Below are positions 27,646-62,793 of a stretch of DNA of 64,000 nt, piece by piece. Position numbers and translations under genes: made by a program. Where the stretch lies: positions 81,425-145,424 of the forward strand of contig CALXUS010000001.1 of the NCBI GenBank assembly GCA_944391745.1, written 5' to 3'. The stretch's first letter is position 1. Every line of letters begins with the position of its first letter. The stretch is from an uncultured Clostridia bacterium (GTDB taxonomy: Bacteria > Bacillota > Clostridia > TANB77 > CAG-508). Below the pieces are notes generated by a model. That model saw nothing but the letters and a program-made list of their open reading frames with translations. It was not told the DNA's origin and did not search any database.

Positions 27646-27709
27646 TACTTTAATTCTCCTTTGTTCGCTTAATATAGTCTTTTCATTATTATATATAAAA
27701 TATAATAAA

Positions 27710-29339
27710 CTATTCAAAATAGCCTATTTTTCTTTTGTAATCATCATAATCTCCAATATATGAAGTAGCCTTACCATTTTTAAATTCTACTACTTTATTT
27801 GCAAATTTATTTATAAAATATCTATCATGGCTTACAAATATAAGTGTACCATCAAAATCGCTTAAAGCCTCTTCTAATACTTCTTTAGTTGGAATATCTA
27901 TATGATTTGTTGGTTCATCTAAAATTAATGTATTTATTCTTTTTTGAAGTAATTCTGCTAGTTTTACTTTCATTCTTTCGCCACCTGATAAACTTCCCAC
28001 TTTTCTTATTACATCTTCTCTATAAAATTGAAAGTTTGCAAGTATTTGTCTAGCTTTTTGTTCATTTATTTCGGCTGCCATTTCAAAATATTCTAGTAGT
28101 GTCTGATTTTCTTTAGGAAAAGTTATTATTTGTGGTAAATACCCTATAATTACACTTGGTCCTATTTCAATATTTCCTTGTACTGGTAGTTCTTGAATTT
28201 TAAGTACAGACTTTACAAATGTTGATTTTCCGCTTCCATTATTGCCTATTATCGCAATTCTTTCCTTTGAGAAAATTTCTAAACTTATTTCATCTAAAAT
28301 CTTGTTGCCATCAGGTGCTTTTACTGATAAATTTTCCACATTAATTATTCTTTTACTTGATTTTCTTTCTTCTTTGAATTCTACATTAATTTTTTTATGT
28401 TCTTTAGGTTTGTTTACTGCTATCTTTTTTAGTCGGTCAATTTGCGTTTGAAGGCTATGAGCTCTGTCACATAAAGTTGAACTATTTGTTGCCATTCCTC
28501 TTTCTGCAAAATATTTCCTTTGCTCTTCAAGTCTTTTAATTATTGCCTGTTGATCTTTATAATTCTCCATCTGCTTTTCGAAATCTTTTTTCTTTTGTTC
28601 TAAATATTCAGAATAATTTGAATAATAAACTTTGCCAGTTCCATCATCTAAATCTAATATTTTGTTTGAAACTTTATCTAAAAAGTATCTATCATGTGAT
28701 ACAATAACTGATGCTCCTTTAAAAGATTTTATATAGTTTTCAAGCCATTCAATTCTTCCTATATCTAAATGATTAGTAGGTTCATCTAATAATATTAAAT
28801 CAGGTTTTTTTATAAGTATTTTAGCTAGTTGTATTAATGTTTTTTCTCCTCCACTTAAGTCATTATAACTTTGATTTAATATTTTCCTATCTATTTTTAG
28901 TCCTTCTATAACTGTATTTATATTTATATCAATATCATATCCTCCTTTTTCAGAGAATTTTTCTATTAATTTACAATATTTGTTCAATTTATTAGGATCT
29001 TCATTGTTTTCTAATTGTTTTTGTAATTTTTTTATTTGGTTTTCCATTTCTATTAAATCACTAAAACCGTCTTTTATTATTTCATAAGCTATTCTGTTAT
29101 CTATGATACTAGAACCAGTTTGATTTAAATAACCTACTTTAGCATCTTTCTTTATATTTACTTGTCCTGTATCGGCTTTTTCTATTCCTGCAATAATTTT
29201 CAGTAAAGTAGATTTTCCACATCCATTTGGACCTACTATTGAAATAGATTCTCCTTCATTTAATGAAAAAGATACATTTTCAAATAATTGTCCATAGCCG
29301 AAAATTTATCCCCAATTTATTTACATCTAGTATTATCAT
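27710..29339 (-). pseudogene. ABC-F family ATPase (two ABC cassettes), disrupted by a +1 frameshift about 13 codons into the gene
   Basis: The upstream frame encodes MIILDVNKLGINF. Deleting one C at about 29298-29300 joins it to GYGQLFENVSFSLNEGESISIVGPNGCGKSTLLKII..., in frame with the 27710..29047 ORF. Confidence 0.65.
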
Positions 29340-48126: not shown

Positions 48127-49167
48127 TTATCTCATCATCATATCAGCAAAAATAGCATATCCTTCTGTTGGTGAATTTAATAATACATTTGTAATTGCAC
48201 CAATAAATTTATTGTTTTGAATAATTGGAGTTCCACTCATTCCAGGTATTATTCCTCCTGTTTTATTTATTAATTCTTCATCAGTAATTTCAATTAGCAT
48301 ACTTTTATTATCCTTCGAATTTTTATAAATTTTTTTAATCTTTATTTTATATTCAGAGACCTTTCCATTTTCTAATTCGCATAGTATTTTTGCATCACCT
48401 GTTGTTATTTCTTTTCTACTAGCAACTTCAACTTCTTTTTGTTTTATAGAGTTAATGAATTCAATATTTGTAGTAGTTCCATACACACCAATACCAGTAT
48501 TACTTTCTATAGTTCCTATTTTATATCCATTATCTATTATTCCCCTTATTTCTCCTACTCTACCTTTTACACCTTTTACTATAGATACTATTTGAGCAGT
48601 TACTAATTCTCCATTAGAAATGTTTAATAAATTTCCTGTATCTACATCTGTTATTCCATGTCCAAGTGCAGCAAAAGTTTTTGTTGCTTCCTCATAATAG
48701 GTCAAAGTTCCTATTCCAGCTGCTGCATCTCTTACCCATAAGCCTAACATGTAATCTTCATTTTTTCCTTTAATAGGCATTATATTTGTATAAATTAGCT
48801 CATTATTTCTTTCATATTTTATAGATATTTCTTGTCCATCTGAAGAATTCACTATATTTATTAATGTTTGTGTATTATTTATTTCCTGTCCATTAATTTC
48901 TTTTATCATATCTCCTTCTTTAATCCCAGAATTTTCATAAGGCTTATATTTATTTCCATCTATGCCATCAACCTCTGACATACCAACAACTAATACCCCA
49001 TTCGTATACAATTTTAATCCCACAGTTCTACCTATAGGATTTACATATCTATTTGTTCCTGTACTAACCGATTTTGCGTAAATATTGTATTGTATCATAG
49101 TAGTGTATATATACAAGCTTAAACAAACTATAATTAAAATAGTTGATATAATTTTATTTTTTTTCAT
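48127..49167 (-). CDS. spoIVB: Stage IV sporulation protein B (SpoIVB, S55 peptidase with PDZ domain)
   Basis: 346 aa. PDZ region plus GMSGTPIIQNNKFIGAITNV catalytic motif. Confidence 0.88.
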   Translation of the reverse strand: MKKNKIISTILIIVCLSLYIYTTMIQYNIYAKSVSTGTNRYVNPIGRTVGLKLYTNGVLVVGMSEVDGIDGNKYKPYENSGIKEGDMIKEINGQEINNTQTLINIVNSSDGQEISIKYERNNELIYTNIMPIKGKNEDYMLGLWVRDAAAGIGTLTYYEEATKTFAALGHGITDVDTGNLLNISNGELVTAQIVSIVKGVKGRVGEIRGIIDNGYKIGTIESNTGIGVYGTTTNIEFINSIKQKEVEVASRKEITTGDAKILCELENGKVSEYKIKIKKIYKNSKDNKSMLIEITDEELINKTGGIIPGMSGTPIIQNNKFIGAITNVLLNSPTEGYAIFADMMMR

Positions 49168-49180
49168 AAACTTTCCTCTA

Positions 49181-49220
49181 AAAAAATAGTTACTCTTTAC
49201 TTAGAGTAACCATTTTTTTT
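49181..49220. terminator. Terminator at the distal end of the pilus-like operon
   Basis: tagttactct/agagtaacca stem, flanked by A7 and T8. Confidence 0.6.
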
Positions 49221-49239: not shown

Positions 49240-51141
49240 TTAAGTAGCATATTCATTAAAATATTCACTTACTTTATATAAAGCTTCTTTCTCTCTTGCA
49301 AGAGCAGTAATATAAGCTTTTCTTACATCATCATTAGGATTTTGTCCTTCGTATTCTGCATGCACACCTTCATTAGAGCTTTTAAATGGTGTTCCTTCAA
49401 GTAAATTATCTGTTGTGAATACAATATCTTCTCTTCCTATTATACATTCATAAGCACCTGAACCAGAATGAGGATAATAATAGAATGATAGTGTTGTTGA
49501 CTTATAACTTGATGGATCTACCTCATCATAAGAGGCTAATTGTTGTAAGTAATCTATACTATTATATCCTATTAATTGTCCACCAGTATATCCTCCATTA
49601 TTTAATTCTATACATCTTGGACTATGGTAAGTACCAGAAACATCATTATCTCTATTTCCAGTTTCAACTTCTCTTAAAATAATTGAATCCCTTGAAACAA
49701 ATTCTTTATTTTTTGTATTAGCTACTATTGCATAATTACTATAATATTTAAAGTTTCCTATTGGAAGTCCTTGCATGAAAGAAACAACAGTTACATTATT
49801 AGTAATTTTATACCAATCATCTTCGCTTAATACTGGTAATGTAAATTCATACCCCGAATTTTGATGAATATTAAAGTTAGCAATAATACTCATCAAATTA
49901 GATTCTATTGAACTAATTATAACATCCATTCTATGTTCATTAAATGTTGAATCTTCTGCTTCAGGATCATTATCAGGATCTTTTATATCAAAAGCATCTG
50001 TTATATCATAATCATAACGTTCATGTATAGGGACTATCTCTCCTGTTGATTCTTCTACTTTAGTATAATTTAACTGATTATTATAACTATCTGTTACAAC
50101 ATTAATCGTTGATAATCCCCCAAAAATATCCCAAAATTTTTCAGAGAATTCTTTTGCTTTTGTATAGTAATTTATTGCACTTTGATCTAAAAAGTTTCCC
50201 TCATTTAGCTGAGTATAATCAGCATTCTCGTCATTTAATACATATTTTGCTAAAGAATTTGCTTCATTAGCATTTAAATATACTCTTAAATTGTTATTAA
50301 GTCTAAAAAAGTTTATTCCTGTAACATAAGTACTACTTCCTTTTCCTATATTAGCAGAATTATCTATATAATATTTATTATTATTAAAATATACATATTG
50401 AAAATATTCTGGTTCACAAGGACTGTATTCAGTTCCAGTAGAACCATCTGTCTTAGGTATTGTATCGATAGTAACAATATATTCTCCTAGTTTTTCTTTT
50501 TCTACTAAAACACCATGAGCATTGACTGTGCCATCAATATTTACTGTAATATTATCTGGATTTACTAAATATCCTGATAAATTTATTACATCTGATCCAT
50601 TTACGCCCATCATAGTAATATAATTATCTAGTGTATAATTAATAACTATATCTAAATTACCAGAATTTGAAGTATATTCACAAGTATAATAAATAAATGG
50701 TTTTACACCATTACGTGAAGCTAATTCATTTGAATTAACTGTTAAGTATTCTTGTTTTCCATCAGTTATTGTTACAGCATTTTGATAATCACCATATAAG
50801 TAATATCCATCATATAAAGTAAATAACATTGCTGGTATATAGCCTTGTAAATCTTCTCTTCTGTATCCTGATGAGCCCATGCCTGATGCTAAACTATTGT
50901 AAAATGTATTTACAGTTGCAGATATATCTCTTATTTTTGAATCATTTACAGTTGAATAACCATTTCTTAAAGTATTCATTTGATATGCATATACGGCATC
51001 ATTAGTAGCACTTAGTAAAATGTCATCATAGGCTGCTTCTTCGGCAATGACTTTTTGATTGTTATCTACATACATATTAATTACTAATGATATTGGCAAT
51101 ATAATTACTATAAATACTACTGCTAATTGTTGTAATTTCAT
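49240..51141 (-). CDS. Large (633 aa) N-terminally anchored protein; candidate filament tip or adhesin component of the Tad-like locus
   Basis: N-terminal hydrophobic segment MKLQQLAVVFIVIILPISLV. Last gene of the operon. Confidence 0.5.
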   Translation of the reverse strand: MKLQQLAVVFIVIILPISLVINMYVDNNQKVIAEEAAYDDILLSATNDAVYAYQMNTLRNGYSTVNDSKIRDISATVNTFYNSLASGMGSSGYRREDLQGYIPAMLFTLYDGYYLYGDYQNAVTITDGKQEYLTVNSNELASRNGVKPFIYYTCEYTSNSGNLDIVINYTLDNYITMMGVNGSDVINLSGYLVNPDNITVNIDGTVNAHGVLVEKEKLGEYIVTIDTIPKTDGSTGTEYSPCEPEYFQYVYFNNNKYYIDNSANIGKGSSTYVTGINFFRLNNNLRVYLNANEANSLAKYVLNDENADYTQLNEGNFLDQSAINYYTKAKEFSEKFWDIFGGLSTINVVTDSYNNQLNYTKVEESTGEIVPIHERYDYDITDAFDIKDPDNDPEAEDSTFNEHRMDVIISSIESNLMSIIANFNIHQNSGYEFTLPVLSEDDWYKITNNVTVVSFMQGLPIGNFKYYSNYAIVANTKNKEFVSRDSIILREVETGNRDNDVSGTYHSPRCIELNNGGYTGGQLIGYNSIDYLQQLASYDEVDPSSYKSTTLSFYYYPHSGSGAYECIIGREDIVFTTDNLLEGTPFKSSNEGVHAEYEGQNPNDDVRKAYITALAREKEALYKVSEYFNEYAT

Positions 51142-51220: not shown

Positions 51221-51745
51221 CTATTTTCCATTTACACTTACAATTCCGCTATGTTGAGCAGTTATGCTTGCAGTATTATTTCCAGTTACACGGTAGACAA
51301 AATCTTTTAATATAGTTCCAATAGTTCTGTTTGTATTTTTTACACTAACTGTTACCATATCACCTTGTTTTAAGTACATTGCACCTGCTTCAGAATTTAC
51401 TTCATCTAATATTTGGGTAGTGTACTTACTATAATAATAGTTTTCTCCAACTTTTGTGTATTCAGCCTCTGTAACCTTTTTTCCTGGGTTATCATCTAAT
51501 ACTTGAACTTCCATTTCAACATTATAACTATTTCCTGTTGAAGACAATATTTGAACAAAATTATCATAGTTATCTTGTGTTATTTGCCCTGTAGATCTAA
51601 TTTCATCAACAAAATCTGTTGTTGCTGCATCAACAGCTTGAGTTGTAATATCATCAGTTCTTTCAGAGGTTGACATTAGTGGAAATATGAACATTAATAT
51701 AGCAGCTAAAAATATTGCTACCACCGTTATAACTGTATCGCTCAT
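51221..51745 (-). CDS. Small N-terminally anchored protein (174 aa); pilin/pseudopilin-like candidate
   Basis: N-terminal hydrophobic helix, then a soluble domain. Operon context. Confidence 0.5.
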   Translation of the reverse strand: MSDTVITVVAIFLAAILMFIFPLMSTSERTDDITTQAVDAATTDFVDEIRSTGQITQDNYDNFVQILSSTGNSYNVEMEVQVLDDNPGKKVTEAEYTKVGENYYYSKYTTQILDEVNSEAGAMYLKQGDMVTVSVKNTNRTIGTILKDFVYRVTGNNTASITAQHSGIVSVNGK

Positions 51746-51762: not shown

Positions 51763-52644
51763 TTAAGCTTCACTTTTTATATAAATGTATTGAATTACTC
51801 TTTTTGTAGTGCCTTTATTATTTGCTACAATTTCGCCATTATCTAGTTCATCTACTGAGTCTACAATATTTGAAAGAATATTTAACTGGCTTTCTGAGTT
51901 ACCTTCATCATCTTCATTTACATTTTGTACATTATTATAATTATATTCGCCATATCTTTCGACAAATTCGTAGTCCTTGCCTATTATGCCATCACTACCA
52001 CCATTGAAACTACCATATTGAAATTTTATTTGATAATATGGGTATGGTTCGTCAGGCGGATTATATGTAAATTGATTTATTGTTCCATTATATAAACTTG
52101 CTGTTCTACTAGTATAGTATTTTTCTGTAAGAGTACCATTAACAAATGCTTTAATAAACTCAAAAGAAGTTTTTTGTGTAGCACTCCATGGTTCTCTTCT
52201 AACTTGTTCATCTTGAATGTCAAAACCATATACTTTTCTTGTTTGGCTTCCAGCTTCTGTTGTGGTTATAGTAGAACCAGGTAAATATGTAGCATCAGTT
52301 TCTGTATAATAAAGAGTCATAGGCTCAATAGTAGCAAAGTTACCTGTAGTTCTATCATAGCCTGTACCTACATAAAATAATATAGTATAATTTTCTTTAT
52401 AATATCTATATAATGTAGGAATAATGGTTTCAGGCCCCACAATTCTGCTTGATAAAGCATTTACACTACCTTCACCAGTTGCATCTAATGCTAATTGTTG
52501 ATAATATTCTTTTATATCTGCATTTTGTGCTAAATTGGCAGAAGTTTGCCTTACTCTATTAAAAGAATAGACTGCTAAAGATAATGCTGCAACAAATACT
52601 AAAACTGCAAAAGCCATTTTTATGGCATGAACTGCATTCTCCAT
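51763..52644 (-). CDS. MENA-family pilin-like protein (293 aa)
   Basis: N-terminus MENAVHAIKMAFAVLVFVAALSLAVYSF, related to the three MENASKALIIAG paralogs. Confidence 0.55.
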   Translation of the reverse strand: MENAVHAIKMAFAVLVFVAALSLAVYSFNRVRQTSANLAQNADIKEYYQQLALDATGEGSVNALSSRIVGPETIIPTLYRYYKENYTILFYVGTGYDRTTGNFATIEPMTLYYTETDATYLPGSTITTTEAGSQTRKVYGFDIQDEQVRREPWSATQKTSFEFIKAFVNGTLTEKYYTSRTASLYNGTINQFTYNPPDEPYPYYQIKFQYGSFNGGSDGIIGKDYEFVERYGEYNYNNVQNVNEDDEGNSESQLNILSNIVDSVDELDNGEIVANNKGTTKRVIQYIYIKSEA

Positions 52645-52667
52645 ATTTACCCTTTCTTTATATTAAA

Positions 52668-53180
52668 TTAATCTTGATTTGCTTCAATATATATTGTTTT
52701 AACGTAACCATTTGACCAATATGTTTGTAAACCTTGTCCTGCTGTTTCATTATCATCATCACCATAAGATTCTACACCATCTTCGTCATAAGTTCCACCA
52801 TCTGTATTTGATGTTGTATATGCTCTAACTTTATATGTTCTACCAGTTTTTATAGCTGTTCCACTTGTAATTGTAGCCTCAGCAGTACTTCCATCTACTA
52901 ATCTAACTTGGATACGATTTCCTATATTTTCATCATTAGCTGCTGCTGATCTATTATTTGCACTAACTGCTGTCATTAAAGCTCTAACATTTGAACCTGA
53001 TTGACTTTCACCATAATATCCTTCAAATGGTGAATTATGTGTTGAAATTGCTTGAGTATCCATATTTGCATCAGTTGCTATTCCTGAAACATTATTGTAA
53101 ATTATAACTCCTAAACCAACTATTAAAATTGAAATTAATATTGCACCTGCAATAATAAGTGCTTTTGACGCATTTTCCAT
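52668..53180 (-). CDS. MENA-family pilin-like protein (about 170 aa)
   Basis: Start MENASKALIIAGAILISILIVGL at the ATG 53180 with a strong RBS aaaggagg. The ORF-track 5' extension lacks support. Confidence 0.6.
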   Translation of the reverse strand: MENASKALIIAGAILISILIVGLGVIIYNNVSGIATDANMDTQAISTHNSPFEGYYGESQSGSNVRALMTAVSANNRSAAANDENIGNRIQVRLVDGSTAEATITSGTAIKTGRTYKVRAYTTSNTDGGTYDEDGVESYGDDDNETAGQGLQTYWSNGYVKTIYIEANQD

Positions 53181-53293
53181 AAAATAATTCCTCCTTTGAT
53201 TTTTAATTTTTATATAATATTTAGTTTGCGTAACTAAATCTAAAAACATATAAATTTATCTATTGTTTACTTAACTTCATTTGAGTTTGCATT

Positions 53294-53737
53294 TTATTTT
53301 TCACTATTAACATCTATTTCATCAAAATGTAAATAGCTAATTAAATTAGTATTTTTATGATATTCTATTTTTGTACATTTAAAAATTCTATTTGAATATA
53401 GATTAATAAATTGACTTAAATCAGCTTGGTAAATAGATTCAATTTTAAATGTACTATCATTATCAATAAATTTTATATCTGCAATAATTGAATTAGTGTC
53501 ATTTTCGATAAAGAAATTATTTTCATCTTTACTTACTCCATTTTTTTGATTAGTATCGTAAATTTTATTAATATATGTTGCAAGATCTGTTCCAGTAATT
53601 TCCTTATTTAGTAATTTTTCATAATTAGCATTATAACTAATTACTTGTCTTTCATTTTCAGAATAGTTAAAATATAAGTACCCTATTCCTGCTATAATTA
53701 TTACAACTACTACAAAAAATATTAAGAATTTTTTCAT
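53294..53737 (-). CDS. Small N-terminally anchored protein (147 aa)
   Basis: MKKFLIFFVVVVIIIAGIGYLYF. Confidence 0.5.
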   Translation of the reverse strand: MKKFLIFFVVVVIIIAGIGYLYFNYSENERQVISYNANYEKLLNKEITGTDLATYINKIYDTNQKNGVSKDENNFFIENDTNSIIADIKFIDNDSTFKIESIYQADLSQFINLYSNRIFKCTKIEYHKNTNLISYLHFDEIDVNSEK

Positions 53738-53795
53738 TTTTTCCTCTTCTGAATTATAACATTTATTATTTTTTTATGCAATAATTTTTTACATT

Positions 53796-54359
53796 TTATC
53801 CATTTTCAAACAATATTGTTTCATTTTGTAGTATAGCATTAACGTAAGTTTCGTCATCAATTGGGGTAAAATTTATTGATGATATCATCTTTGTATCGTC
53901 ATTATATACTATATCTGTATCTTTAAATGTTCTTTTTACTGTGACAGTACCTGTAGAGCTATCACCATTAATATGACTAATTTCTACATTACATTGATAA
54001 TATGTAGAATTTCTATTATCTGTTAAATAATCATTTATATCAAAAGAATCACCTAATACTGATGAGTTATTAATTTTTACATCTACATAGTATTGATCTC
54101 CAGGTTCAGCTTCGTAGTCCGCATTATGTCTTTTAGAATAATTAATAATTGATACTACTTCTTGCATACTTATATTAGCTCTTCCTGAAAAATTTGTATA
54201 TCTAACATTAAAACTATCAATTTGGGTTTGGCTAATTTCATCATTAACATGCCTTGAATAATTTCCAAATAATACAATCATATAGCTAGCTAATGAAAGA
54301 ACTAAAATACCAATTAGTATTTCACCTGCTATAATTAAAGCTTTTGATGCATTCTCCAT
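53796..54359 (-). CDS. MENA-family pilin-like protein (187 aa)
   Basis: MENASKALIIAGEILIGILVLSLASY. Confidence 0.6.
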   Translation of the reverse strand: MENASKALIIAGEILIGILVLSLASYMIVLFGNYSRHVNDEISQTQIDSFNVRYTNFSGRANISMQEVVSIINYSKRHNADYEAEPGDQYYVDVKINNSSVLGDSFDINDYLTDNRNSTYYQCNVEISHINGDSSTGTVTVKRTFKDTDIVYNDDTKMISSINFTPIDDETYVNAILQNETILFENG

Positions 54360-54382
54360 TAGCTCACCTCATTTCTATAAAT

Positions 54383-54856
54383 TTAATCATTAACAACTTC
54401 TAATCTATGAAAGTGCATTGAAATAACTCTTGAATTTAATGCATCATATTGAACATCATCACATTCATAATATCTTTGTTTAAATTCATTTTTAGTATCA
54501 CTATCCCAAGTATCATAATCGGCTAAATAAGCATTAAGGTCCTCATTTGTAGCTGTTTCACTCGATAGTCCATCTACGGTTACTGATACTGGCTTATATC
54601 CTTCTTCGTCAGTGAATCTTGTGTTTGTATCTGTAACAAGATTTGATAATGATATTAGTTGATAACCTCTAACCGATCTTCTATTATATCCTTCAAACCT
54701 CTTATTGAATTCAAGAACTTCTTGTTGTCTTTCAGTATCGGCTTCAGCTCTTTGGTAATTTCTAATTTGTGTGTAGCCGAAAGTTAGTAGACCAACAATC
54801 ATCATTGCTATAAGTATTCCACCTGCAATAATTAAAGCTTTACTTGCATTTTCCAT
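54383..54856 (-). CDS. MENA-family pilin-like protein (157 aa)
   Basis: MENASKALIIAGGILIAMMIVGLLTF. Confidence 0.6.
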   Translation of the reverse strand: MENASKALIIAGGILIAMMIVGLLTFGYTQIRNYQRAEADTERQQEVLEFNKRFEGYNRRSVRGYQLISLSNLVTDTNTRFTDEEGYKPVSVTVDGLSSETATNEDLNAYLADYDTWDSDTKNEFKQRYYECDDVQYDALNSRVISMHFHRLEVVND

Positions 54857-54876: not shown

Positions 54877-56955
54877 TTATGTCATTGCAGACATTGAGTC
54901 AAATGATGAAGTCATACTTGTTAGACCAATTACAACTAATGGAGCAACTAAGTAAGCAACAAATAGGCCAACAAGTGGTGTAAATCCAATCGCTCTACCT
55001 ATCATTCCTCTCTTAGAAATTAATCTATCATTTGCCTCTTTTCTCTTATCTTGATAATACTCTCTATCTGATTCTAGTTCGTCGAAAGCCTCTCTAATAG
55101 GAACTTTTTCAACGGCTGTTTGTAAACTTTCTACTATTCTAATTAGTGGTTGGAATGAAATTTCTTCTTTCATATCTTCTAATGATTCCCAAGCACCACT
55201 TTCGTAGTTATTTAAACATTTACTAATTGGCTCTTTGAAAATATCTGCATATCTCTCCATCCATTCAAGTATCATTTCAACATCAACTCTTTCAAGTCTC
55301 ATAAGCATTAATATAATTGTTTGATATTGCATTACTTCATCTTCCATTGACATTTTTCTAATAATAACTTGGAATTTTAACATAAGAATTGGTGCTGCAT
55401 ATCCAATTATCGCAAATACCATAGCCATTAATATTTCAAACCACTTTAGGTATTCAGAGTTAACAGTTTGCAATTTATCTAATATTTTTGCTGCATTAGT
55501 AGAAATTGTATTTGCATCTGCATCCTCATAATATTTAGAATCTCTCATTGCATCTTCTATATCTTCTTGGGTAGTATCTAACTTACCTCTAAACATATCT
55601 AGGAAATAGTTATGTATTTGAGTAGTTTCCATTGCTTTTTTGTAATCTTTACCATCCAGTTCACCAATTAAGTCATAATCTGTTGTGGGTTCAGTATAAA
55701 TATAGTTAATCTGAACATTGTGAAGCATAATAAATATAAATATTGATGCAACAAATACAACTACTGTTAGACACAATCTATTAATATACAGCCATTCAAT
55801 TTTCTGTTTTGAAGCAGCAGCTTTTAATGTTTCTTTAAGCTTTCTTCTTTCTTTTGTTCCATCTTTAGGAATAAATAAATCCACAAATTTCTTAACAGGC
55901 TTAATTTTATATAATTTAGCTTGCCAAGGATTTTGATTATTTTCAAGTTTAATATTAACTGCTCCATTGTCTTTTAGTTTTCTAATTAATATATAGCATA
56001 TAAATGTAACAAGTAATATTAATATTTGTATAATCATACCTAATTTACCATTATAGAATGATTTAGTAAATGAGAAATTGCTTAGTGCCCAACTTTTAAA
56101 TGGCTCTAGTAAAACCATAGGTACTATTGCTATAAAAGATAAGCTTTGAAATGTATAATTAAGTTTATCCCTTTTTAATATTTCAAGCTGCATTTCCTGT
56201 GTAATATTATCTAGGTTTTTTAGATATAATGATGTTCCATCTACTTTTCTATCACCAAACTCTTGTGTAAGGTATGATATACCAGCAAATTCTTTTAAAT
56301 AATTATTTGGTGCTACATCATAATACTTTTCAAGTTCCACTTCTGGATCATCAGAATTTAAAATATTATATATTTTTTCAGCTTGTCTAGATATTTCAAC
56401 ATGTTCATCATCTTGAGCGGTTTGATATATTGCTTCTCCAACCATGTTTGTTTCATGATATGAGTGTCTCATTGCAGCGAAAAAGTCTACCTGTTGATTT
56501 AACAAATTATTATCTAGTTTATCCACCATTCCATCTACCAAAGAATCTACTATAAATAGTTCGAAAACTAATATAATAAACATTATAAGTGGATTACTTT
56601 TTGTCATAAATATAACAGCAAATGTAACAGGAATAATTATAATTAAAGCTTTTGTTATAATTTGAGCTGTTTGTAATCTTGTTAAAAATTCATCATCTAT
56701 ATTAATAATTTCTAGTCTTCTTCTTATTTTTAATAAATATCTTCTTAATGGAGGAAACTTTAAATATTTTACATATAGTTTTTGGTACATTACATCTTTA
56801 GAAAAATTGCTTTCTCTTGTACCTTTTCTTAATTGCTCGATTCTTACAACATCAGAGCTTTGCATTTTCTTTCTTAAAGCAAGATATGCAATTATTACTA
56901 TTGCAAATATGCCTAATACAACCCCCATCATGATAAAAATTGTATCATTAGACAT
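54877..56955 (-). CDS. Polytopic inner-membrane protein (692 aa); putative fused TadB/TadC (GspF-like) platform protein
   Basis: Multiple TM helices interspersed with two large cytoplasmic domains. Position immediately after the secretion ATPase. Confidence 0.45.
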   Translation of the reverse strand: MSNDTIFIMMGVVLGIFAIVIIAYLALRKKMQSSDVVRIEQLRKGTRESNFSKDVMYQKLYVKYLKFPPLRRYLLKIRRRLEIINIDDEFLTRLQTAQIITKALIIIIPVTFAVIFMTKSNPLIMFIILVFELFIVDSLVDGMVDKLDNNLLNQQVDFFAAMRHSYHETNMVGEAIYQTAQDDEHVEISRQAEKIYNILNSDDPEVELEKYYDVAPNNYLKEFAGISYLTQEFGDRKVDGTSLYLKNLDNITQEMQLEILKRDKLNYTFQSLSFIAIVPMVLLEPFKSWALSNFSFTKSFYNGKLGMIIQILILLVTFICYILIRKLKDNGAVNIKLENNQNPWQAKLYKIKPVKKFVDLFIPKDGTKERRKLKETLKAAASKQKIEWLYINRLCLTVVVFVASIFIFIMLHNVQINYIYTEPTTDYDLIGELDGKDYKKAMETTQIHNYFLDMFRGKLDTTQEDIEDAMRDSKYYEDADANTISTNAAKILDKLQTVNSEYLKWFEILMAMVFAIIGYAAPILMLKFQVIIRKMSMEDEVMQYQTIILMLMRLERVDVEMILEWMERYADIFKEPISKCLNNYESGAWESLEDMKEEISFQPLIRIVESLQTAVEKVPIREAFDELESDREYYQDKRKEANDRLISKRGMIGRAIGFTPLVGLFVAYLVAPLVVIGLTSMTSSFDSMSAMT

Positions 56956-56977: not shown

Positions 56978-58882
56978 TTAAATATCACGGTTTGCACTTA
57001 TTTTATCTCCCCATATTCTTTCAATAAATTTACAAAAATCTTTTGCATCATTATCATCCATATTAAGTAGCATTTCTTTTAAGTTTGTATCAGAAATTCT
57101 ATTTGTCATTACATATTTTCCGTCTTGGTATTCAAGAATATTTACATATTTATATAATTCTTTATTTGTTTGTTTTGTATAATATCTTGTTGTATTATCT
57201 GCAAATTTATCGAATTTTCCTTCTAACGTTTTTTCTTTTCTATGATCATAATTGTAATCATTAACATCTTCTACTGGAATACATTCTGTAATTCTTTCAA
57301 CATATCTTTTTCCTTTGAAATCTTTTGTTAAGTGAATATCAAAGTTTAAAACTTGTACAACCTGCTCTTCTGCAGTTTTTTCATTAGTGAAAACACCAGT
57401 TCTAAGCATTGAGTTACGAAGAGCTGTAACTAAGTTAGGGAATGTTTTAGCGTGGTGAGTAAATAATGTAAACTTAGAAGCAACCTGTGCTGCCTGAATC
57501 ATCCAAGATGCTACGGGGTCAGTTGCAACCTCACCAATGATATTTACAGAACCATCAGTCTTTTTCTGAACATCTAGACCTTGCTGTCCTGAAATTGTAT
57601 CTGTTTCCCTAAAAGTTAATATATTTCTTGTAGGGTATATTTTTCTTAAGTGAAGCTCGAAAGCTGTTTCCTGAACACGAATGTTCATTGTTTCATATAT
57701 GTTTTCTATCATACCCATAAGCATTGTTGTTTTACCACAACCCTGCTCACCAGTTATTGATATAATTCTTGCTCCTTTAACTAAATATTTTAATAGTTCT
57801 ATTGTATCAGCGCTTCCCTCTTCACCTTTAAACCATTGTTCTAGAGTTGAACGCTTAACATCGAATTTTCTTACGAAGAATGCCCATGTTTCTGAGAAAC
57901 TTGGTCTAACAACAACGACACGTGAACCATCTTTCATTTCATTAATCTTATAACCATTTGTATCTGAAAGTTGTCCTGGGTTATTGTATTTATATATGTT
58001 TTGGCATACTCTTTTTAATTCTGCTTCAGTTCCAAATGATAAGCAAGCAAGTCTAATTGATTTACCTTGGAAGAATATCCATATACTATCACAAGCTCTA
58101 GGTACTTTATGTTCCATAACTTGTGATAAATAACTTGAATCTGATTGTGCAACTTGGCTTAAGAAACTTTCTGGCATACCTGATACACCACCTGATACAC
58201 CATCTATGTTCATATCTCTTACTTCATCAATTGAGCTGTATCCTTTGTATTTTTGATAAATTCTTTGGACAATAACATTTAATTTATCATCAAAAGTTAG
58301 ATTGTAGTTTTCTTTTTCATATATTTCGTTTATTTCTTCTGGAGTTATAACATAAGAAGGTTTAGATTCTCCAGAAGTATATTTTAATCTAGCTAAATCA
58401 TACTTCTTAATAAGTTCTGTTAAAGCTTCATATCCATAGTCTTTTTTATACATATATATTAAAATATCAAATTTATCCTGTGCTGTAAGCAATGATGGTA
58501 CATCAAATGGAATTGCTTTAGAAATATTTGTTTCATCAACACCATATTCTTGTGATAATAAATCATATATTAATTCTTTAACATATTTCTTATCATTAAC
58601 ATCACCATAAGTACAACCTTTTAATGCTTTCTTTAATTCGTATTTTTTATTTTTTCTTCTTTTTAATTCTTCTTCTGAAAGTCCTAAGTCATAAAGGTTA
58701 ACTTTAGTGATTTCATCCATTCTTTTCTTAACAAAGTTCATCATCATATCTAAAGTGTAAGTTTTATCATCTACTACTACTTGTTCTTCTACTTTAGCAT
58801 TTTGATTTTTCTTTATCATTCTCATAACAAGCATTACCGCAATAACTACTACAGCAATAATTAAAATTACATTAAGAAACAT
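56978..58882 (-). CDS. TadA/CpaF-family (VirB11-like) secretion ATPase with a roughly 330-aa N-terminal extension
   Basis: Walker A GEQGCGKTT. Asp box. IIGEV ... FTHHAKT His-box-like region. Confidence 0.7.
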   Translation of the reverse strand: MFLNVILIIAVVVIAVMLVMRMIKKNQNAKVEEQVVVDDKTYTLDMMMNFVKKRMDEITKVNLYDLGLSEEELKRRKNKKYELKKALKGCTYGDVNDKKYVKELIYDLLSQEYGVDETNISKAIPFDVPSLLTAQDKFDILIYMYKKDYGYEALTELIKKYDLARLKYTSGESKPSYVITPEEINEIYEKENYNLTFDDKLNVIVQRIYQKYKGYSSIDEVRDMNIDGVSGGVSGMPESFLSQVAQSDSSYLSQVMEHKVPRACDSIWIFFQGKSIRLACLSFGTEAELKRVCQNIYKYNNPGQLSDTNGYKINEMKDGSRVVVVRPSFSETWAFFVRKFDVKRSTLEQWFKGEEGSADTIELLKYLVKGARIISITGEQGCGKTTMLMGMIENIYETMNIRVQETAFELHLRKIYPTRNILTFRETDTISGQQGLDVQKKTDGSVNIIGEVATDPVASWMIQAAQVASKFTLFTHHAKTFPNLVTALRNSMLRTGVFTNEKTAEEQVVQVLNFDIHLTKDFKGKRYVERITECIPVEDVNDYNYDHRKEKTLEGKFDKFADNTTRYYTKQTNKELYKYVNILEYQDGKYVMTNRISDTNLKEMLLNMDDNDAKDFCKFIERIWGDKISANRDI

Positions 58883-58897
58883 AATTTGCTCCTTTCT

Positions 58898-59737
58898 CTA
58901 TAATAAGCCATTCTTTTTTTCTTGCATTTTATATTCTAGTGAATTTGTCGTTTCCCTTAGTTGCTTAATAAAATAAGTGTCTTTATTGTCATATCCGTCT
59001 AATCTTTGAATTTTTAAAAAGTAATCTATTATTCTTCCATCTGAGCACTCATCTGAAAATAATATATTATATGGCACAACAAGTGGAATATTTTTTTCTT
59101 TTAAAAATCTTGCAACATTTTTATTAGTATATTTTGAATTAGGATTATATCTTCCCATCATTAATAGTACATTACTTTTTCTATAAAATTCATTATTGAG
59201 TTTAAGTTTCAAAAAGTTGTTAATTGAAGCCATATTTTGTGAAAAATTTACAACAACCAAATCTGAAACTCCTAATATTTTTTCTTTACTTTCTTTTGGA
59301 ACTTTTTTGCTTAAATCTATGAGAACTATATCATAAGTTTGATTAGCAACATCAGCAATTTGTGAAAAATAATTTGAAATATTTGCATATTCCTTATAAT
59401 CTACTGTTTTGGGTCCCTGTAAAATGTCTAATCTATCTTTTAATACTGGTTTTGTATAGCTTCTTATAACTTCTCCTGATGCTCTATTACTTGCAAAAGT
59501 TCTAACTAATCCTTCAAGTCCATTTGATACGTCCATGACATTAGCATTTGCAAATAATCCTCTTCTTCTATTGTTAGGATTCCAAAAACAGTTTTCCAAC
59601 GTTTTATCAATGAATTCAGTTGAAAACAATAAGATTTTATAGTTATGTTCAATAGCCATAGCTGTTGCTATGGCAGAAATCGAACATGTTTGAGCAGTTT
59701 CTTTTAAATCTTCACTTACAAATGTTATAACTGACAT
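58898..59737 (-). CDS. ParA/MinD-like protein with a degenerate P-loop (TadZ/CpaE-like)
   Basis: VITFVSEDLKETAQTCSISAIATAMAIEH ... YDIVLIDLS. Confidence 0.5.
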   Translation of the reverse strand: MSVITFVSEDLKETAQTCSISAIATAMAIEHNYKILLFSTEFIDKTLENCFWNPNNRRRGLFANANVMDVSNGLEGLVRTFASNRASGEVIRSYTKPVLKDRLDILQGPKTVDYKEYANISNYFSQIADVANQTYDIVLIDLSKKVPKESKEKILGVSDLVVVNFSQNMASINNFLKLKLNNEFYRKSNVLLMMGRYNPNSKYTNKNVARFLKEKNIPLVVPYNILFSDECSDGRIIDYFLKIQRLDGYDNKDTYFIKQLRETTNSLEYKMQEKKNGLL

Positions 59738-59751
59738 TTTTTATCCTTTCA

Positions 59752-60432
59752 TTATTTTCTTCTAATAATTTTTCTAATTTCAGATTGTTCTATTATTCCT
59801 TCCATCATTAAAGACATTAAATATTCTAAACATTCTTTATACAAATTTGTATATGGTCTAATATCTATTTGTTTTATTAATTGATTAGATAAATTTGCAT
59901 TTCTATCTCGATCAGAGTCTGGAAATTGTACTATATTGCTATTCCACTTTACTTGAAATGATTCTAATAAGTGATTTAAATATTCATCATGTTTGTTATT
60001 TAAATCCGATGATATTATTACTTTCGTTAGTTCTATAGGAGTTCTTAATACTCCTAATATTTCTAAACTTCTTTGCAATTCATATTCGTCATAAGAAGTA
60101 CTGTAAAAAATCTTCCTTGAGTTTGGTAAAGCAAATGATGTAAATGTTTGTGGATTGTCAGTATCGATTATAACAATATCATAATTTAATGTCTGCGTAC
60201 CTAGATATTGGCATATTTGTCCTAGATTCATGAAGCCTAGTGCAACATCCACTCCATCGTACTCACTAACATAAGTAGGAGTAGATGCTACTCTTGGTAC
60301 AATATATCTAAGTCTTTGCATTATAGTAGCATCAACTAGTAGAACACTTTTATTTAATTTAGATAATATCTTTGCTATATTTAATAGCAAATCTTTTTTA
60401 TCGTTTACTCCTACAAAACCTATTTGCTCCAC
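59752..60432 (-). CDS. Second ParA/MinD-like degenerate protein
   Basis: IGFVGVNDKKDLLLNIAKILSKLNKSVLLVDAT ... YDIVIIDTD. Confidence 0.5.
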   Translation of the reverse strand: MEQIGFVGVNDKKDLLLNIAKILSKLNKSVLLVDATIMQRLRYIVPRVASTPTYVSEYDGVDVALGFMNLGQICQYLGTQTLNYDIVIIDTDNPQTFTSFALPNSRKIFYSTSYDEYELQRSLEILGVLRTPIELTKVIISSDLNNKHDEYLNHLLESFQVKWNSNIVQFPDSDRDRNANLSNQLIKQIDIRPYTNLYKECLEYLMSLMMEGIIEQSEIRKIIRRK

Positions 60433-60464: not shown

Positions 60465-61550
60465 TTATTCTAATGAGTCTAAATATGTTTGTCTTGCAGC
60501 CTCAGCATCGCTTATTTCTTGCTGTACTCCTGAATTTGCTTTTGAATCTCTTTCTTCTTGTTGCATTTTGTTTAATTCAGCATTTATATTTTCTCTGTTT
60601 ATTCCTTGTGTTCCTAATCTATTGCTTAATTCTGAAATTTCTTCAGCTACTACATTAGGATCTCTATTTCCTATCAAATCTTGTACTTCTCCATTTGGTA
60701 CATAAGTAAGTGTTGCTTCTGTTTGAAGTCCTGGTTCAACATATCTTGTTATATATAATCTGCTTCCATCTATCATATATGATTCTACTATAGCATTACT
60801 CATAAGTAAAATTTCATCTTCTGTAAGATTCAAAGTAAATGTATTTACTGAAGGTATTCCTCCTTCATCTAATATTGTTATTCTTTTTTTAGAAACTACT
60901 ATGTAATCTGTACCATCTGGTAATCTTAATCTTACATCTATAACATCATCTGTTTCTATATCTGCAGGTAAAGATATCATATTATATTCTTGTTTTCTTG
61001 TTGAATCTGATGTTAATTCGAAACTTCTAGCTATTGAATCTGTAGTTAATACTGTATTTTTATTCATGTTAATTTTAGCCATAGCTGGTGTTCCTTCAAC
61101 TATAACAGTTCTGTTTACACCATCCCTTGTAGTAATAGTACCAGTTTGTGTATCTTCATTAAGTCCTTCTATTTGAAAGTTTTCTCCATCTATAGTAACA
61201 TAAGTTATTACATTTCCATTTGTATCTACTCCACTTTGTACTGGGTTTCCGTCTTGATCAGTTAGAAAATAATCTCCAACTTCAGAAACATAGTTGCTTG
61301 GAATAGTATCTGGGTCAATTTCGTCTTTTAAAGTTAGCATATCTGGTGTAATTAATTGTCCTGCTTTTACATCTTGATTAAGAGTATATACTTTTACCAA
61401 TCTTGCCACTCTTTCTTCTTCTGCTCTTCTCATTTGCATAATAAATATTACTAGAGCAATAATTGCTATTAATCCAAATGCTCCAGCTATTACTAAACCT
61501 TTTATAAATGAATTACGCGCTTTTCTTTCCAATGGATTTGTTGTTGCCAT
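60465..61550 (-). CDS. CpaB/RcpC-like Flp pilus assembly protein (N-terminal TM plus SAF domain)
   Basis: TM GLVIAGAFGLIAIIALVIFI. SAF-like YTLNQDVKAGQLITPDMLTLKDE. Confidence 0.6.
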   Translation of the reverse strand: MATTNPLERKARNSFIKGLVIAGAFGLIAIIALVIFIMQMRRAEEERVARLVKVYTLNQDVKAGQLITPDMLTLKDEIDPDTIPSNYVSEVGDYFLTDQDGNPVQSGVDTNGNVITYVTIDGENFQIEGLNEDTQTGTITTRDGVNRTVIVEGTPAMAKINMNKNTVLTTDSIARSFELTSDSTRKQEYNMISLPADIETDDVIDVRLRLPDGTDYIVVSKKRITILDEGGIPSVNTFTLNLTEDEILLMSNAIVESYMIDGSRLYITRYVEPGLQTEATLTYVPNGEVQDLIGNRDPNVVAEEISELSNRLGTQGINRENINAELNKMQQEERDSKANSGVQQEISDAEAARQTYLDSLE

Positions 61551-61668
61551 CGTTAATTCCTCCTTAATATCATAAAATCTTGATTATAATTTTATATCAT
61601 AGTTTTTTAAAAAACAATAAATATATTAATTATTACTTTTTTTTAATAATGTTGTAATATTTGTAATA

Positions 61669-62793
61669 TTAATTTGCTATTTTATATGGATTCTCCAGTG
61701 TTCCCATACCTTCTGAGAAATTAAATCTATCTAATATTACTACAGGTAAAATATTCATTGTACTACTTGAACTTTTGTCTGATGAATCATATAACTTGCT
61801 TCCATTAATTGTAATATCATCATTTACGCTTATATTATTTATCAAAAATTCTGCATTTTCGCTATTATTTATACTTCTTGTTGAAAGCCAATATTGTCCA
61901 TAAGGTATAATTTCTAAATAGTCTTCCTTGTAAGTAACTTTTCCAGAATAAAATGAATTACTTAATACTAATTTTCTTGTTTTTTCTATTCCATTATAAA
62001 ATTTACTTTGTTCATAATCATTATCTTCTTCTAAAATCACTAATGGATAACTAGCATTATCATATTCTTTTTTGGATTCGTATAAGTTCCCCTTTTGCTC
62101 TTCAATATTGCTCCCTAATTTTTCTATATCATTTAAATTAATGTTTCTCGCTTTTGTACCTAGACTTTTATTTGAGAAAATCTCATTACAAGCATCGTTT
62201 AAAACTTTTACTGCATTATTGTATCCATTAGCTCCTGTAAGCTTTAATGCACTTGTAGTTAAATTGGTTGGTGTAATTTTAACTACATTATTGTTATTCT
62301 CAACATCTATAACTCTCCATGTTATACCTCCATTATAAGGTATATTTATTTGAACTTCTGCAGAGTTTCCTATTACATTTGATTCTATTGTATAATTTCC
62401 ACCATCATAGGTATATTGAATGTAATCTCCTATTTTTACACCTACACTTTTTGCATTTAAATTCCAAAGTTCATTTATTTTCATACTATATCCACCTTGA
62501 GTTGTTACAAGTGCTGCTATTTCTTGATTATCTTTGTTTTCTATTGTTCCATATTTTTTTAATCTTTCAATAAGTTCATCATAATTATTCGGAGGATTCT
62601 CTGATAAGTCTAATTGTATTTCTTCTTTTAAAGAAAGTTTTTCGGTTTCTTCTTTTTTTCTATTAGCAATATCAACAATTTCTTCATTTTTTGAGTTTGA
62701 AGCTATTAAAATTCCTGTTATAATTGTAAGTATAACAACTGTAATTACTAAAATAATTAAAGTTACACCTTCATTTTTCTTAAAATCTATCAT
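61669..62793 (-). CDS. Prepilin-like N-terminal domain protein (374 aa) with a large C-terminal domain; Ile instead of Glu at +5
   Basis: MIDFKKNEG then VTLIILVITVVILTIITGILIAS. Confidence 0.55.
   Translation of the reverse strand: MIDFKKNEGVTLIILVITVVILTIITGILIASNSKNEEIVDIANRKKEETEKLSLKEEIQLDLSENPPNNYDELIERLKKYGTIENKDNQEIAALVTTQGGYSMKINELWNLNAKSVGVKIGDYIQYTYDGGNYTIESNVIGNSAEVQINIPYNGGITWRVIDVENNNNVVKITPTNLTTSALKLTGANGYNNAVKVLNDACNEIFSNKSLGTKARNINLNDIEKLGSNIEEQKGNLYESKKEYDNASYPLVILEEDNDYEQSKFYNGIEKTRKLVLSNSFYSGKVTYKEDYLEIIPYGQYWLSTRSINNSENAEFLINNISVNDDITINGSKLYDSSDKSSSSTMNILPVVILDRFNFSEGMGTLENPYKIAN

Follow-up and report, generated by a model that had tools for sequence, protein, structure and literature searches.

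A 64,000-nucleotide stretch of the genome of an uncultured Clostridia bacterium of the order TANB77 (contig CALXUS010000001.1; "the window" below is this whole stretch) encodes four proteins that begin with the residues MENA, and the conservation of this N-terminus among related genomes is far beyond chance. The first ~35 residues of these MENA proteins are a common module under purifying selection, bitopic with the N-terminus in and the C-terminus out. The four MENA genes and three neighboring genes for small bitopic proteins probably specify the pilin-like subunits of a pilus machine of the Tad type (type IVc-like), albeit a very divergent one. An earlier note on this DNA had described a family of pilin-like paralogues with identical N-termini but no cleavable leader; its observation was partly confirmed and its pilin-like interpretation was partly supported by the analysis reported here. 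The finding is real and strongly non-random, but it is largely explained already: a pilin-like reading of this gene cluster is supported here and has previously been published by Kim et al. 2024 (Nat Commun 15:10726, PMC11680825).

The MENA proteins and their N-terminal module

The four genes, and the head-domain paralogue located among them, are the following (a slash within a motif marks the predicted or known cleavage site, here and below).

54383..54856, minus strand: pilin-like class 1 protein, 157 residues; begins MENASKALIIAG (MENASKA/LIIAG)
53796..54359, minus strand: pilin-like class 1 protein, 187 residues; begins MENASKALIIAG (MENASKA/LIIAGE); head homologous to the 157-residue head
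52668..53180, minus strand: pilin-like class 1 protein, 170 residues; begins MENASKALIIAG (MENASKA/LIIAGA); residues 1-85 common, remaining head different
51763..52644, minus strand: pilin-like class 2 protein, 293 residues; begins MENAVHAIKMAF (MENAVHA/IKMAF); N-terminal 35-44 residues common with class 1
53294..53737, minus strand: head-domain paralogue, 147 residues; ordinary MKK-hydrophobic N-terminus, that is, a signal anchor or Sec signal peptide

The translated open reading frames (ORFs) bear out that the first 12 residues are identical in the three class 1 proteins, while the fourth protein starts with its own version of the motif; a six-frame scan revealed no further MENA-type N-terminus in the 64-kb window. 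The called start codons of the MENA genes are right: the start Met residues are the same in the orthologues, proteins identical to these products are present in the public protein collection and, for the 170-residue protein, a longer ORF start at 53249 is not used by the homologues, the start at 53180 being backed by the ribosome-binding site, database proteins and orthologues. Each gene had been credited with a strong ribosome-binding site of its own, which holds for the genes of the 157-, 187- and 170-residue proteins (Shine-Dalgarno-like GAGG/GGAGG, 7-9 nucleotides upstream) but not for the gene of the 293-residue protein, whose Shine-Dalgarno-like element is a weaker AAGGG.

A scan for MENASKAL in one genome per species found at least 599 stretches, and the counts per 80 loci given here are based on the best 80 of these, which all belong to metagenome-assembled genomes (MAGs) of uncultured gut Clostridia (from humans, rabbits, mice, ruminants and chickens). 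In the resulting alignment of 238 class 1 homologues, conservation amounts to 92-100% at every position of the motif M E N A S K A L (1-8): M1 is present in 238 sequences, E2 in 237, N3 in 238, A4 in 229, S5 in 223, K or R at position 6 in 228, A7 in 236 (G and S replace it once each) and L8 in 232. Class 2, represented by 65 orthologues, showed M1 in 65, E2 in 63, N3 in 59, D or E at position 6 in 59, A7 in 65 and L8 in 56; the window's own class 2 protein carries His, not D/E, at position 6. The hydrophobic stretch that follows in class 1 comprises ~21 residues (L8-Y28), as opposed to the ~15 estimated in the earlier note. The N-terminus of the 147-residue paralogue from these loci is generically hydrophobic, with MKK as its only conserved residues; the constraint on the MENA module is therefore specific to that module.

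At the DNA level, the first 36 nucleotides of the paralogues differ from each other at 5-7 positions and every one of these differences is synonymous (e.g., Ser AGT vs. TCA, Leu TTA vs. CTT). Further, codon identity between paralogues of one genome (0.668) equals, in essence, that between orthologues of different genomes (0.656; 37 genomes). Hence, it is selection on the peptide that keeps the N-termini identical. The alternative, according to which recent duplication or gene conversion left the N-termini identical as a side effect without functional meaning, had been raised in part by the earlier note on account of presumed DNA identity, and its sole support is that three neighboring genes have the same first 12 residues. 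Gene conversion or recent duplication as the source of this identity is refuted by the synonymous differences and the equal codon identities; in addition, the peptide has been kept over many TANB77 species and thousands of clusters at the 50% identity level, and both the gene order and the identity of the individual paralogues are stable across the clade. We consider this alternative hardly credible.

The family is large. For the 157-residue protein, 210 homologues that share sequence words with it were found, none with a Pfam domain or a name, and a profile search of 1.84 billion representatives recovered ~5,355 clusters at 50% identity, 3,698 of them at E <1e-10. The best 150 profile matches align from residue 1 and begin MEN[AT][STA][KR]AL. 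No model for the MENA family exists in Pfam or NCBIfam.

The heads are not fully divergent, as had been thought. Profile-profile comparisons (hhalign) revealed that the 157- and 187-residue proteins are homologous over their whole length (142 columns, probability 99.9%), that the 170-residue protein has residues 1-85 in common with both and that the 293-residue protein shares residues 1-35 only. The 147-residue protein, which clusters with the MENA proteins, matches residues 45-155 of the 157-residue protein (probability 99%). That is, the N-terminal signature exposes one "pilin-like" gene as a head-domain paralogue with an ordinary export signal. This gene may encode the pilin head in a form that is anchored in the membrane or exported by Sec, by analogy to the archaellin-like FlaF/FlaG proteins of archaella. 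The AlphaFold2 model of the 157-residue protein (mean predicted local distance difference test, pLDDT, of 87) consists of one continuous helix from residue 2 to residue 55 followed by a small alpha/beta head. With its ~21 hydrophobic residues at the start of a long helix and its globular head, the protein agrees with the "lollipop" architecture of type IV pilins, in which 20-25 hydrophobic residues after the cut form alpha1N.

The operon and its machinery genes

The genes from 61550 down to 49240 are all encoded on one strand with short gaps between them and form a fixed 12-gene operon. In addition to the five genes listed above, it comprises the following genes and is bordered by the two putative regulatory elements at the end of the list.

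60465..61550, minus strand: CpaB/RcpC-like bitopic protein, 361 residues; first gene of the operon, weak SAF match
59752..60432, minus strand: degenerate ParA/MinD-like, TadZ-like protein, 226 residues; no intact Walker A, MinD in the PDB at E 0.03
58898..59737, minus strand: second degenerate ParA-like protein, CpaE/TadZ-like, 279 residues; no intact P-loop, PDB 3ea0 ("ATPase, ParA family") at E 0.005
56978..58882, minus strand: CpaF/TadA-like secretion ATPase, 634 residues; N-terminal transmembrane (TM) helix, Pfam T2SSE at 6.8e-6
54877..56955, minus strand: polytopic membrane protein, 692 residues, ~7-8 TM helices; candidate TadC-TadB fusion platform
51221..51745, minus strand: small bitopic protein, 174 residues; very conserved N-terminus M[GS]D[TS]xxT[VI]xAIFLAAILMFxFPLM, weakly DUF4320-like
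49240..51141, minus strand: large bitopic protein, 633 residues; begins MK[LI]Qx[LI]A/[VI]IFxIIxLPIS, orthologue of "pilin 938" of Kim et al. by order and size
61583..61669, minus strand: operon control region with 2-3 direct repeats (A)TATTACA(A) at 10-11 nucleotide spacing (61669-61642)
49189..49210, minus strand: terminator-like hairpin, GTTACTCT-loop-AGAGTAAC and then TATTTTTTT; ends the operon before spoIVB

A type IV filament locus would be expected to combine pilin genes with those for an extension ATPase and a platform protein, and the MENA genes are found with the ATPase in 76 and with the 692-residue membrane protein in 79 of the 80 loci, in a fixed order. The 147-residue paralogue was present in 78 loci, the CpaB-like protein in 64, and the 226- and 279-residue ParA-like proteins in 64 and 65, respectively. 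The order is CpaB-like, ParA-like, ParA-like, ATPase, membrane protein, MENA, MENA, MKK-paralogue, MENA, MENA class 2, 174-residue protein, 633-residue protein and spoIVB, and the more distant loci have the same arrangement. The operon context of a CpaF-like ATPase and a polytopic protein backs the earlier suggestion of pilin-like paralogues with a conserved N-terminus and variable heads; homologues outside filament or secretion loci, which would have spoken against that suggestion, were not found among the 80 loci.

The ATPase provides the clearest link to a named family. It matched TIGR03819 (the TadA family) at 1e-9, with 38 bits against a cut-off of 373; since the score is far below this cut-off, the protein is best viewed as a distant member of the TadA/CpaF clade. 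In a profile search of the PDB, the CpaF structures 8rkd and 9e24 (1.6e-9) were the only strong solved relatives (VirB11 followed at 0.027), and the Walker A, Walker B and His box motifs align with those of the CpaF structures. All orthologues have ~270 extra residues before the CpaF-like part, as well as the N-terminal TM helix. CpaF/TadA proteins are otherwise known as soluble proteins, and the TM helix is unusual.

The remaining components gave fainter signals. The nearest listed relatives of the 692-residue protein are 61-88% identical to it and all unannotated, no internal repeat was detected by hhalign of its two halves, and its AlphaFold2 model is of low confidence (pLDDT 49.8). In a Pfam scan of a mixed set of 46 proteins from these loci, SAF was matched by 6 and ChapFlgA by 5 (best E 5e-6), matches that we attributed to the 8 CpaB-like orthologues in the set; CbiA/AAA_31 was matched by 7 of the 46, and DUF4320, weakly, by 5 (8 of the 46 being orthologues of the 174-residue protein). 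A literature search on DUF4320 yielded nothing relevant. TadZ (ParA/MinD-like) and CpaB/RcpC accessory proteins thus seem to be present, based on signals that are weak but recurrent. Profiles of the 633- and 174-residue proteins had no match in the PDB, and the former had no Pfam match either. The AIFLAAILMFxFPLM helix of the 174-residue protein is almost invariant, and none of the other small proteins of the locus is conserved as well as this one (median identity 58%). Across loci, median identity is 81% for the ATPase, 63% for the 692-residue protein and 34-41% for the MENA proteins.

In TANB77, an uncultured gut order of low G+C content, the machine is inherited vertically and kept in synteny, and the locus represents a signature gene cluster of this order. 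A mobile-element origin was considered and rejected, with no match in phage or plasmid collections. The locus flanks contain housekeeping genes only. Directly 3' of the operon, spoIVB (48127-49167, minus strand) was found in 58 of the 80 loci, followed by murC and spoVG. Given the terminator-like hairpin in between and the housekeeping flanks, this adjacency was read as clade-wide synteny only, not as a link to sporulation. The hairpin (49189-49210) was called on the plus strand by the prediction tool; the minus strand gives the same stem, followed by the T-run.

Upstream of the first gene, the direct repeats are followed by an inverted half (GTAATAAT), a -35-like TTGTTT and a -10-like TATAAAAT, i.e., a sigma-70-like promoter. 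Of 57 related loci, 53 have the pattern TTACR-N5-6-TTACR between -115 and -152 relative to the start of the CpaB-like gene; the background is 0.002 per 200 nucleotides. The TATTACA repeats look like a putative operator, perhaps a binding site of the response-regulator type, that would mark the start of the operon, and they resemble the TT[ATC]ACA repeats of PhoP-type regulators. This resemblance and the 10-11 nucleotide phasing of TATTACA-N4-TATTACA would suit a response regulator of the OmpR/PhoB family. A regulator bound to these repeats upstream of the promoter would switch the operon on, and the repeats could thereby offer a handle on the regulation of the pilus.

Elsewhere in the window, positions 1-2389 and 2602-5319 (minus strand) encode two neighboring large proteins of at least 796 and of 905 residues with similar N-termini, one being MENNKKNKKQLSIKVSTIGF. 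The 905-residue protein (2602-5319) has MucBP and PA14 domains, and therefore both large neighbors are probably adhesins.

The leader, the prepilin peptidase and the competing readings

The leader of class III signals "invariably ends with Gly or Ala" (PMC10191384). In archaeal prepilins, what counts is G, A or S at -1 together with a charge at -2, and Glu at +5 is dispensable, being present in a subset only (PMC4371748); known archaeal sites include RA/LS, DA/VS and RA/VS (PMC4371748). MENASKA/LIIAG consists of a hydrophilic segment of seven residues with an invariant Ala at its end, a charged residue before that Ala, and ~21 hydrophobic residues after it. Both class 1 (MENASK-A/LIIAG) and class 2 (MENAxD-A/LKMAF) fit the archaeal rule position by position: both have a short hydrophilic segment ending in Ala, and the charge at -2 demanded by the FlaFind rule is provided by K/R6 in 228 of 238 class 1 and by D/E6 in 59 of 65 class 2 sequences. 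As the earlier note had pointed out, there is neither a bacterial G/FTLIE site nor an Flp G/XXXXEY site, but its conclusion that there is no cleavable leader does not follow, since the N-termini fit the archaeal-type class III rule.

Under the hypothesis that we favor, MENAxxA would be a 7-residue, archaeal-style class III leader in which the invariant Ala (-1) is preceded by a positive charge in class 1 (K/R) and a negative one in class 2 (D/E), and a prepilin peptidase encoded elsewhere in the genome would cut between Ala7 and Leu8. We lean, by a little, toward this cleavage and thus toward Leu8 as the start of the mature protein, a prediction that matters for recombinant or synthetic versions of these proteins. 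The hydrophobic helix would then serve as alpha1N and pack in the filament core, with the ATPase and the platform extracting the subunits from the membrane and polymerizing them. The 157-residue protein, encoded by the first MENA gene, is the candidate major subunit, and the class 2 and 633-residue proteins are candidate minor or tip subunits. That is, the N-terminal signature would mark the probable subunits: three of class 1, one of class 2 and perhaps two more.

Two proteins encoded in the window bear on the peptidase. The 691-residue protein at 25642-27717 (minus strand), which has RCC1 repeats (Pfam E 1e-63), carries the G-type prepilin-like site KG/ITLIALV (KQAKG/ITLIALVVTIIILLIL, without Glu at +5), and the 374-residue protein at 61669-62793 (minus strand), just 5' of the control region, carries the prepilin-like EG/VTLIILV (MIDFKKNEG/VTLIILVITVVIL). 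Relatives of the latter (KG/ITLVSLVVT) were found in 9 of the 80 loci only, which places it outside the conserved core. These two sites suggest that a prepilin peptidase of G-type specificity may be encoded elsewhere in the genome. As a side observation, the 691-residue RCC1 protein could be a pilin-anchored protein of the cell surface and, in this genome, another type of substrate for the peptidase.

Several results weigh against a Tad-type pilus with cleaved subunits. No pilus has ever been seen, TANB77 is uncultured, and the MENA proteins have no match, by sequence or by fold, to any solved pilin. No pilin model of Pfam (50 members, E up to 10) or of NCBIfam matches the pilin-like proteins, and the 692-residue protein has no sequence match in Pfam, NCBIfam or the PDB, nor did any of its 14 orthologues match PF00482 (T2SSF). 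With regard to the cleavage site itself, Glu is not at +5, which is Gly or Ala (position 12), and a Glu13 (+6) occurs in just 28 of 238 class 1 sequences; the 633- and 174-residue proteins lack the pair of a charged -2 and Ala -1; and MENAS (residues 1-5) is as invariant as the proposed cut site, which is unusual for a leader that is discarded. Finally, no A24-type prepilin peptidase or GxGDxK motif was found in the window or within 10 kb on either side of the 80 loci. The absence of a peptidase from the locus is not decisive, however, because all MSH loci lack one of their own, too (PMC6668835). A few weaker leads were set aside: EFGDRK, which is conserved in the 692-residue protein, lies in a predicted soluble region and was not counted as a peptidase motif; DUF515 and ComGE matches of the pilin-like proteins were weak, below cut-off and over the transmembrane part; and PDB sequence and profile searches with these proteins returned nothing usable.

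Since MENAS is as invariant as the cut site, an intact N-terminus, or a very specific peptidase, is conceivable. In the case of leaderless pilins, the subunits would be polymerized with an intact N-terminus and Met1-Glu2 would act as the charge pair, with no need for a prepilin peptidase. Consistent with this scenario, thousands of sequences show residues 1-6 to be no less invariant than residue 7, in contrast to the variable leaders known from other pilins; Glu at position 2 is found in 237 of 238 class 1 and 63 of 65 class 2 sequences; and no peptidase gene is located in or near any of the 80 loci. Methionine aminopeptidase does not remove Met when Glu is at position 2, and the MENA N-terminus MENASKALIIAGGIL can be aligned without gaps to the mature Flp N-terminus xTAIEYGLIAALIA. 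On the other hand, Ala7 and the charged residue 6 are exactly the pattern that the peptidases require (PMC4371748), loci free of a peptidase gene are known, as in the MSH case above, and the G-type sites on other proteins of the window indicate that a peptidase probably exists. Our literature searches on the MENA motif and on "leaderless" pilins found nothing relevant. Taken together, we judge leaderless pilins unlikely. Less likely by a shade is the farther-reaching claim that the MENA proteins would be the first type IV-filament subunits without prepilin-peptidase processing, with Met1-Glu2 replacing the amine/Glu5 pair and with TANB77 genomes then lacking any peptidase active on them, or, in its weaker version, that a new and highly sequence-specific peptidase would read the whole of MENAxxA.

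It is also possible that the MENA proteins are not filament subunits at all but, for instance, machine components anchored in the membrane in the manner of PilN/PilO or the archaellin-like FlaF/FlaG, or surface proteins or substrates that are recognized by their common N-terminus and that the Tad-like ATPase displays or releases. Their heads resemble no known pilin head in fold or sequence, a long helix with an alpha/beta head would also suit bitopic assembly proteins, the 147-residue paralogue has the same head on an ordinary anchor or signal peptide, and seven different small proteins per locus are many for a simple pilus. Yet a module of ~35 residues on unrelated heads is a hallmark of pilins and unlike proteins of the PilN/O type, the N-terminal TM segment is strongly constrained in contrast to the plain anchor of the 147-residue paralogue, and the heads evolve fast while the machine is conserved (34-41% vs. 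63-81% identity), as expected of exposed subunits. A non-filament role therefore appears improbable to us, and we favor the pilin-like reading, with the MENA proteins as subunits of a divergent Tad-type machine.

Comparison with known systems

A precedent for the MENA pattern is provided by the PilA1-6 pilins of Haloferax volcanii, which are processed by PibD; their short leader ends in a charged residue followed by Ala (DA/VS, RA/VS), and Glu at +5 is not needed (PMC4371748); they also combine a near-identical hydrophobic domain with variable heads (PMC4371748). The MENA proteins differ from archaeal pilins in their bacterial host, in the invariant MENAS leader and in having no sequence similarity to archaeal pilin families, and neither the window nor the 10-kb surroundings of the 80 loci revealed a peptidase of the PibD/FlaK type. 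For a system of the CpaF type, an archaeal-style signal is coherent, because Tad systems are thought to be derived from archaeal Epd-like pili (PMC6668835).

The operon as a whole resembles the Tad/Flp (type IVc) systems of Aggregatibacter, Caulobacter and monoderms, with which it shares an ATPase of the CpaF/TadA type, a CpaB-like SAF protein, ParA-like TadZ/CpaE proteins, a candidate platform of the combined size of TadB and TadC, several pilin-like genes downstream and, as in monoderms, no secretin. The subunits are different, however: those described here have 157-293 residues and globular heads, whereas Flp pilins have 40-60 residues and no head. Further, none of the seven small proteins has a G/XXXXEY site and the locus has no tadV. 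The single, fused candidate platform without a T2SSF signature, the membrane-anchored ATPase and the ParA-like proteins without intact Walker A are additional departures from Tad/Flp systems.

Within TANB77, the operon of the window corresponds to the "pilus gene cluster" that Kim et al. reported to be exclusive to this uncultured order and present in 122 of 129 species (PMC11680825); a few CAG-492 species are without it. The match is based on gene order, sizes, topologies and common MAG collections. Proteins 927-938 of HRGM_Genome_2725 in that study have 358/231/280/640/693/165/170/143/146/237/178/621 residues (PMC11680825), compared to 361/226/279/634/692/157/187/147/170/293/174/633 residues for the 12 genes in the same order here. 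Both clusters have an ATPase with one TM helix, a polytopic protein of ~693 residues and a third small protein that resembles a signal-peptide protein, and both come from low-G+C uncultured gut Clostridia. Because the order is the same and the sizes and topologies are nearly so, we consider the two to be the same system.

Kim et al. assigned, by structure, 927 to CpaB, 928 to TadZ and 929 to CpaE, and 930, with its one TM helix, to TadA/CpaF (PMC11680825). According to the same source, 931 has 8 TM helices, with Foldseek relating its first half to TadC and its second half to TadB, which is the evidence for viewing our 692-residue protein as a platform; 932-937 are named "pilin-like", 934 (143 residues) having a signal peptide by DeepTMHMM and 937 corresponding to our 174-residue protein; and 938 is structurally similar to TadE and PilV in its N-terminal 25% (PMC11680825). 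Recombinant 938 was described to activate dendritic cells through TLR4 and to improve anti-PD-1 therapy in mice (PMC11680825). In a 2024 meta-analysis of ten cohorts, no other taxon was as consistently enriched as TANB77 among patients who responded to checkpoint immunotherapy. The main text of Kim et al. makes no mention of a peptidase, TadV, a leader, prepilin, an N-terminal motif, paralogy of the small proteins or upstream repeats (PMC11680825). Relative to that main text, the present analysis contributes the MENAxxA/L signature, its agreement with the class III rule of the archaeal type, the division into proteins with the shared module and a head-domain paralogue, the size of the family, the absence of a nearby peptidase and the putative direct-repeat operator.

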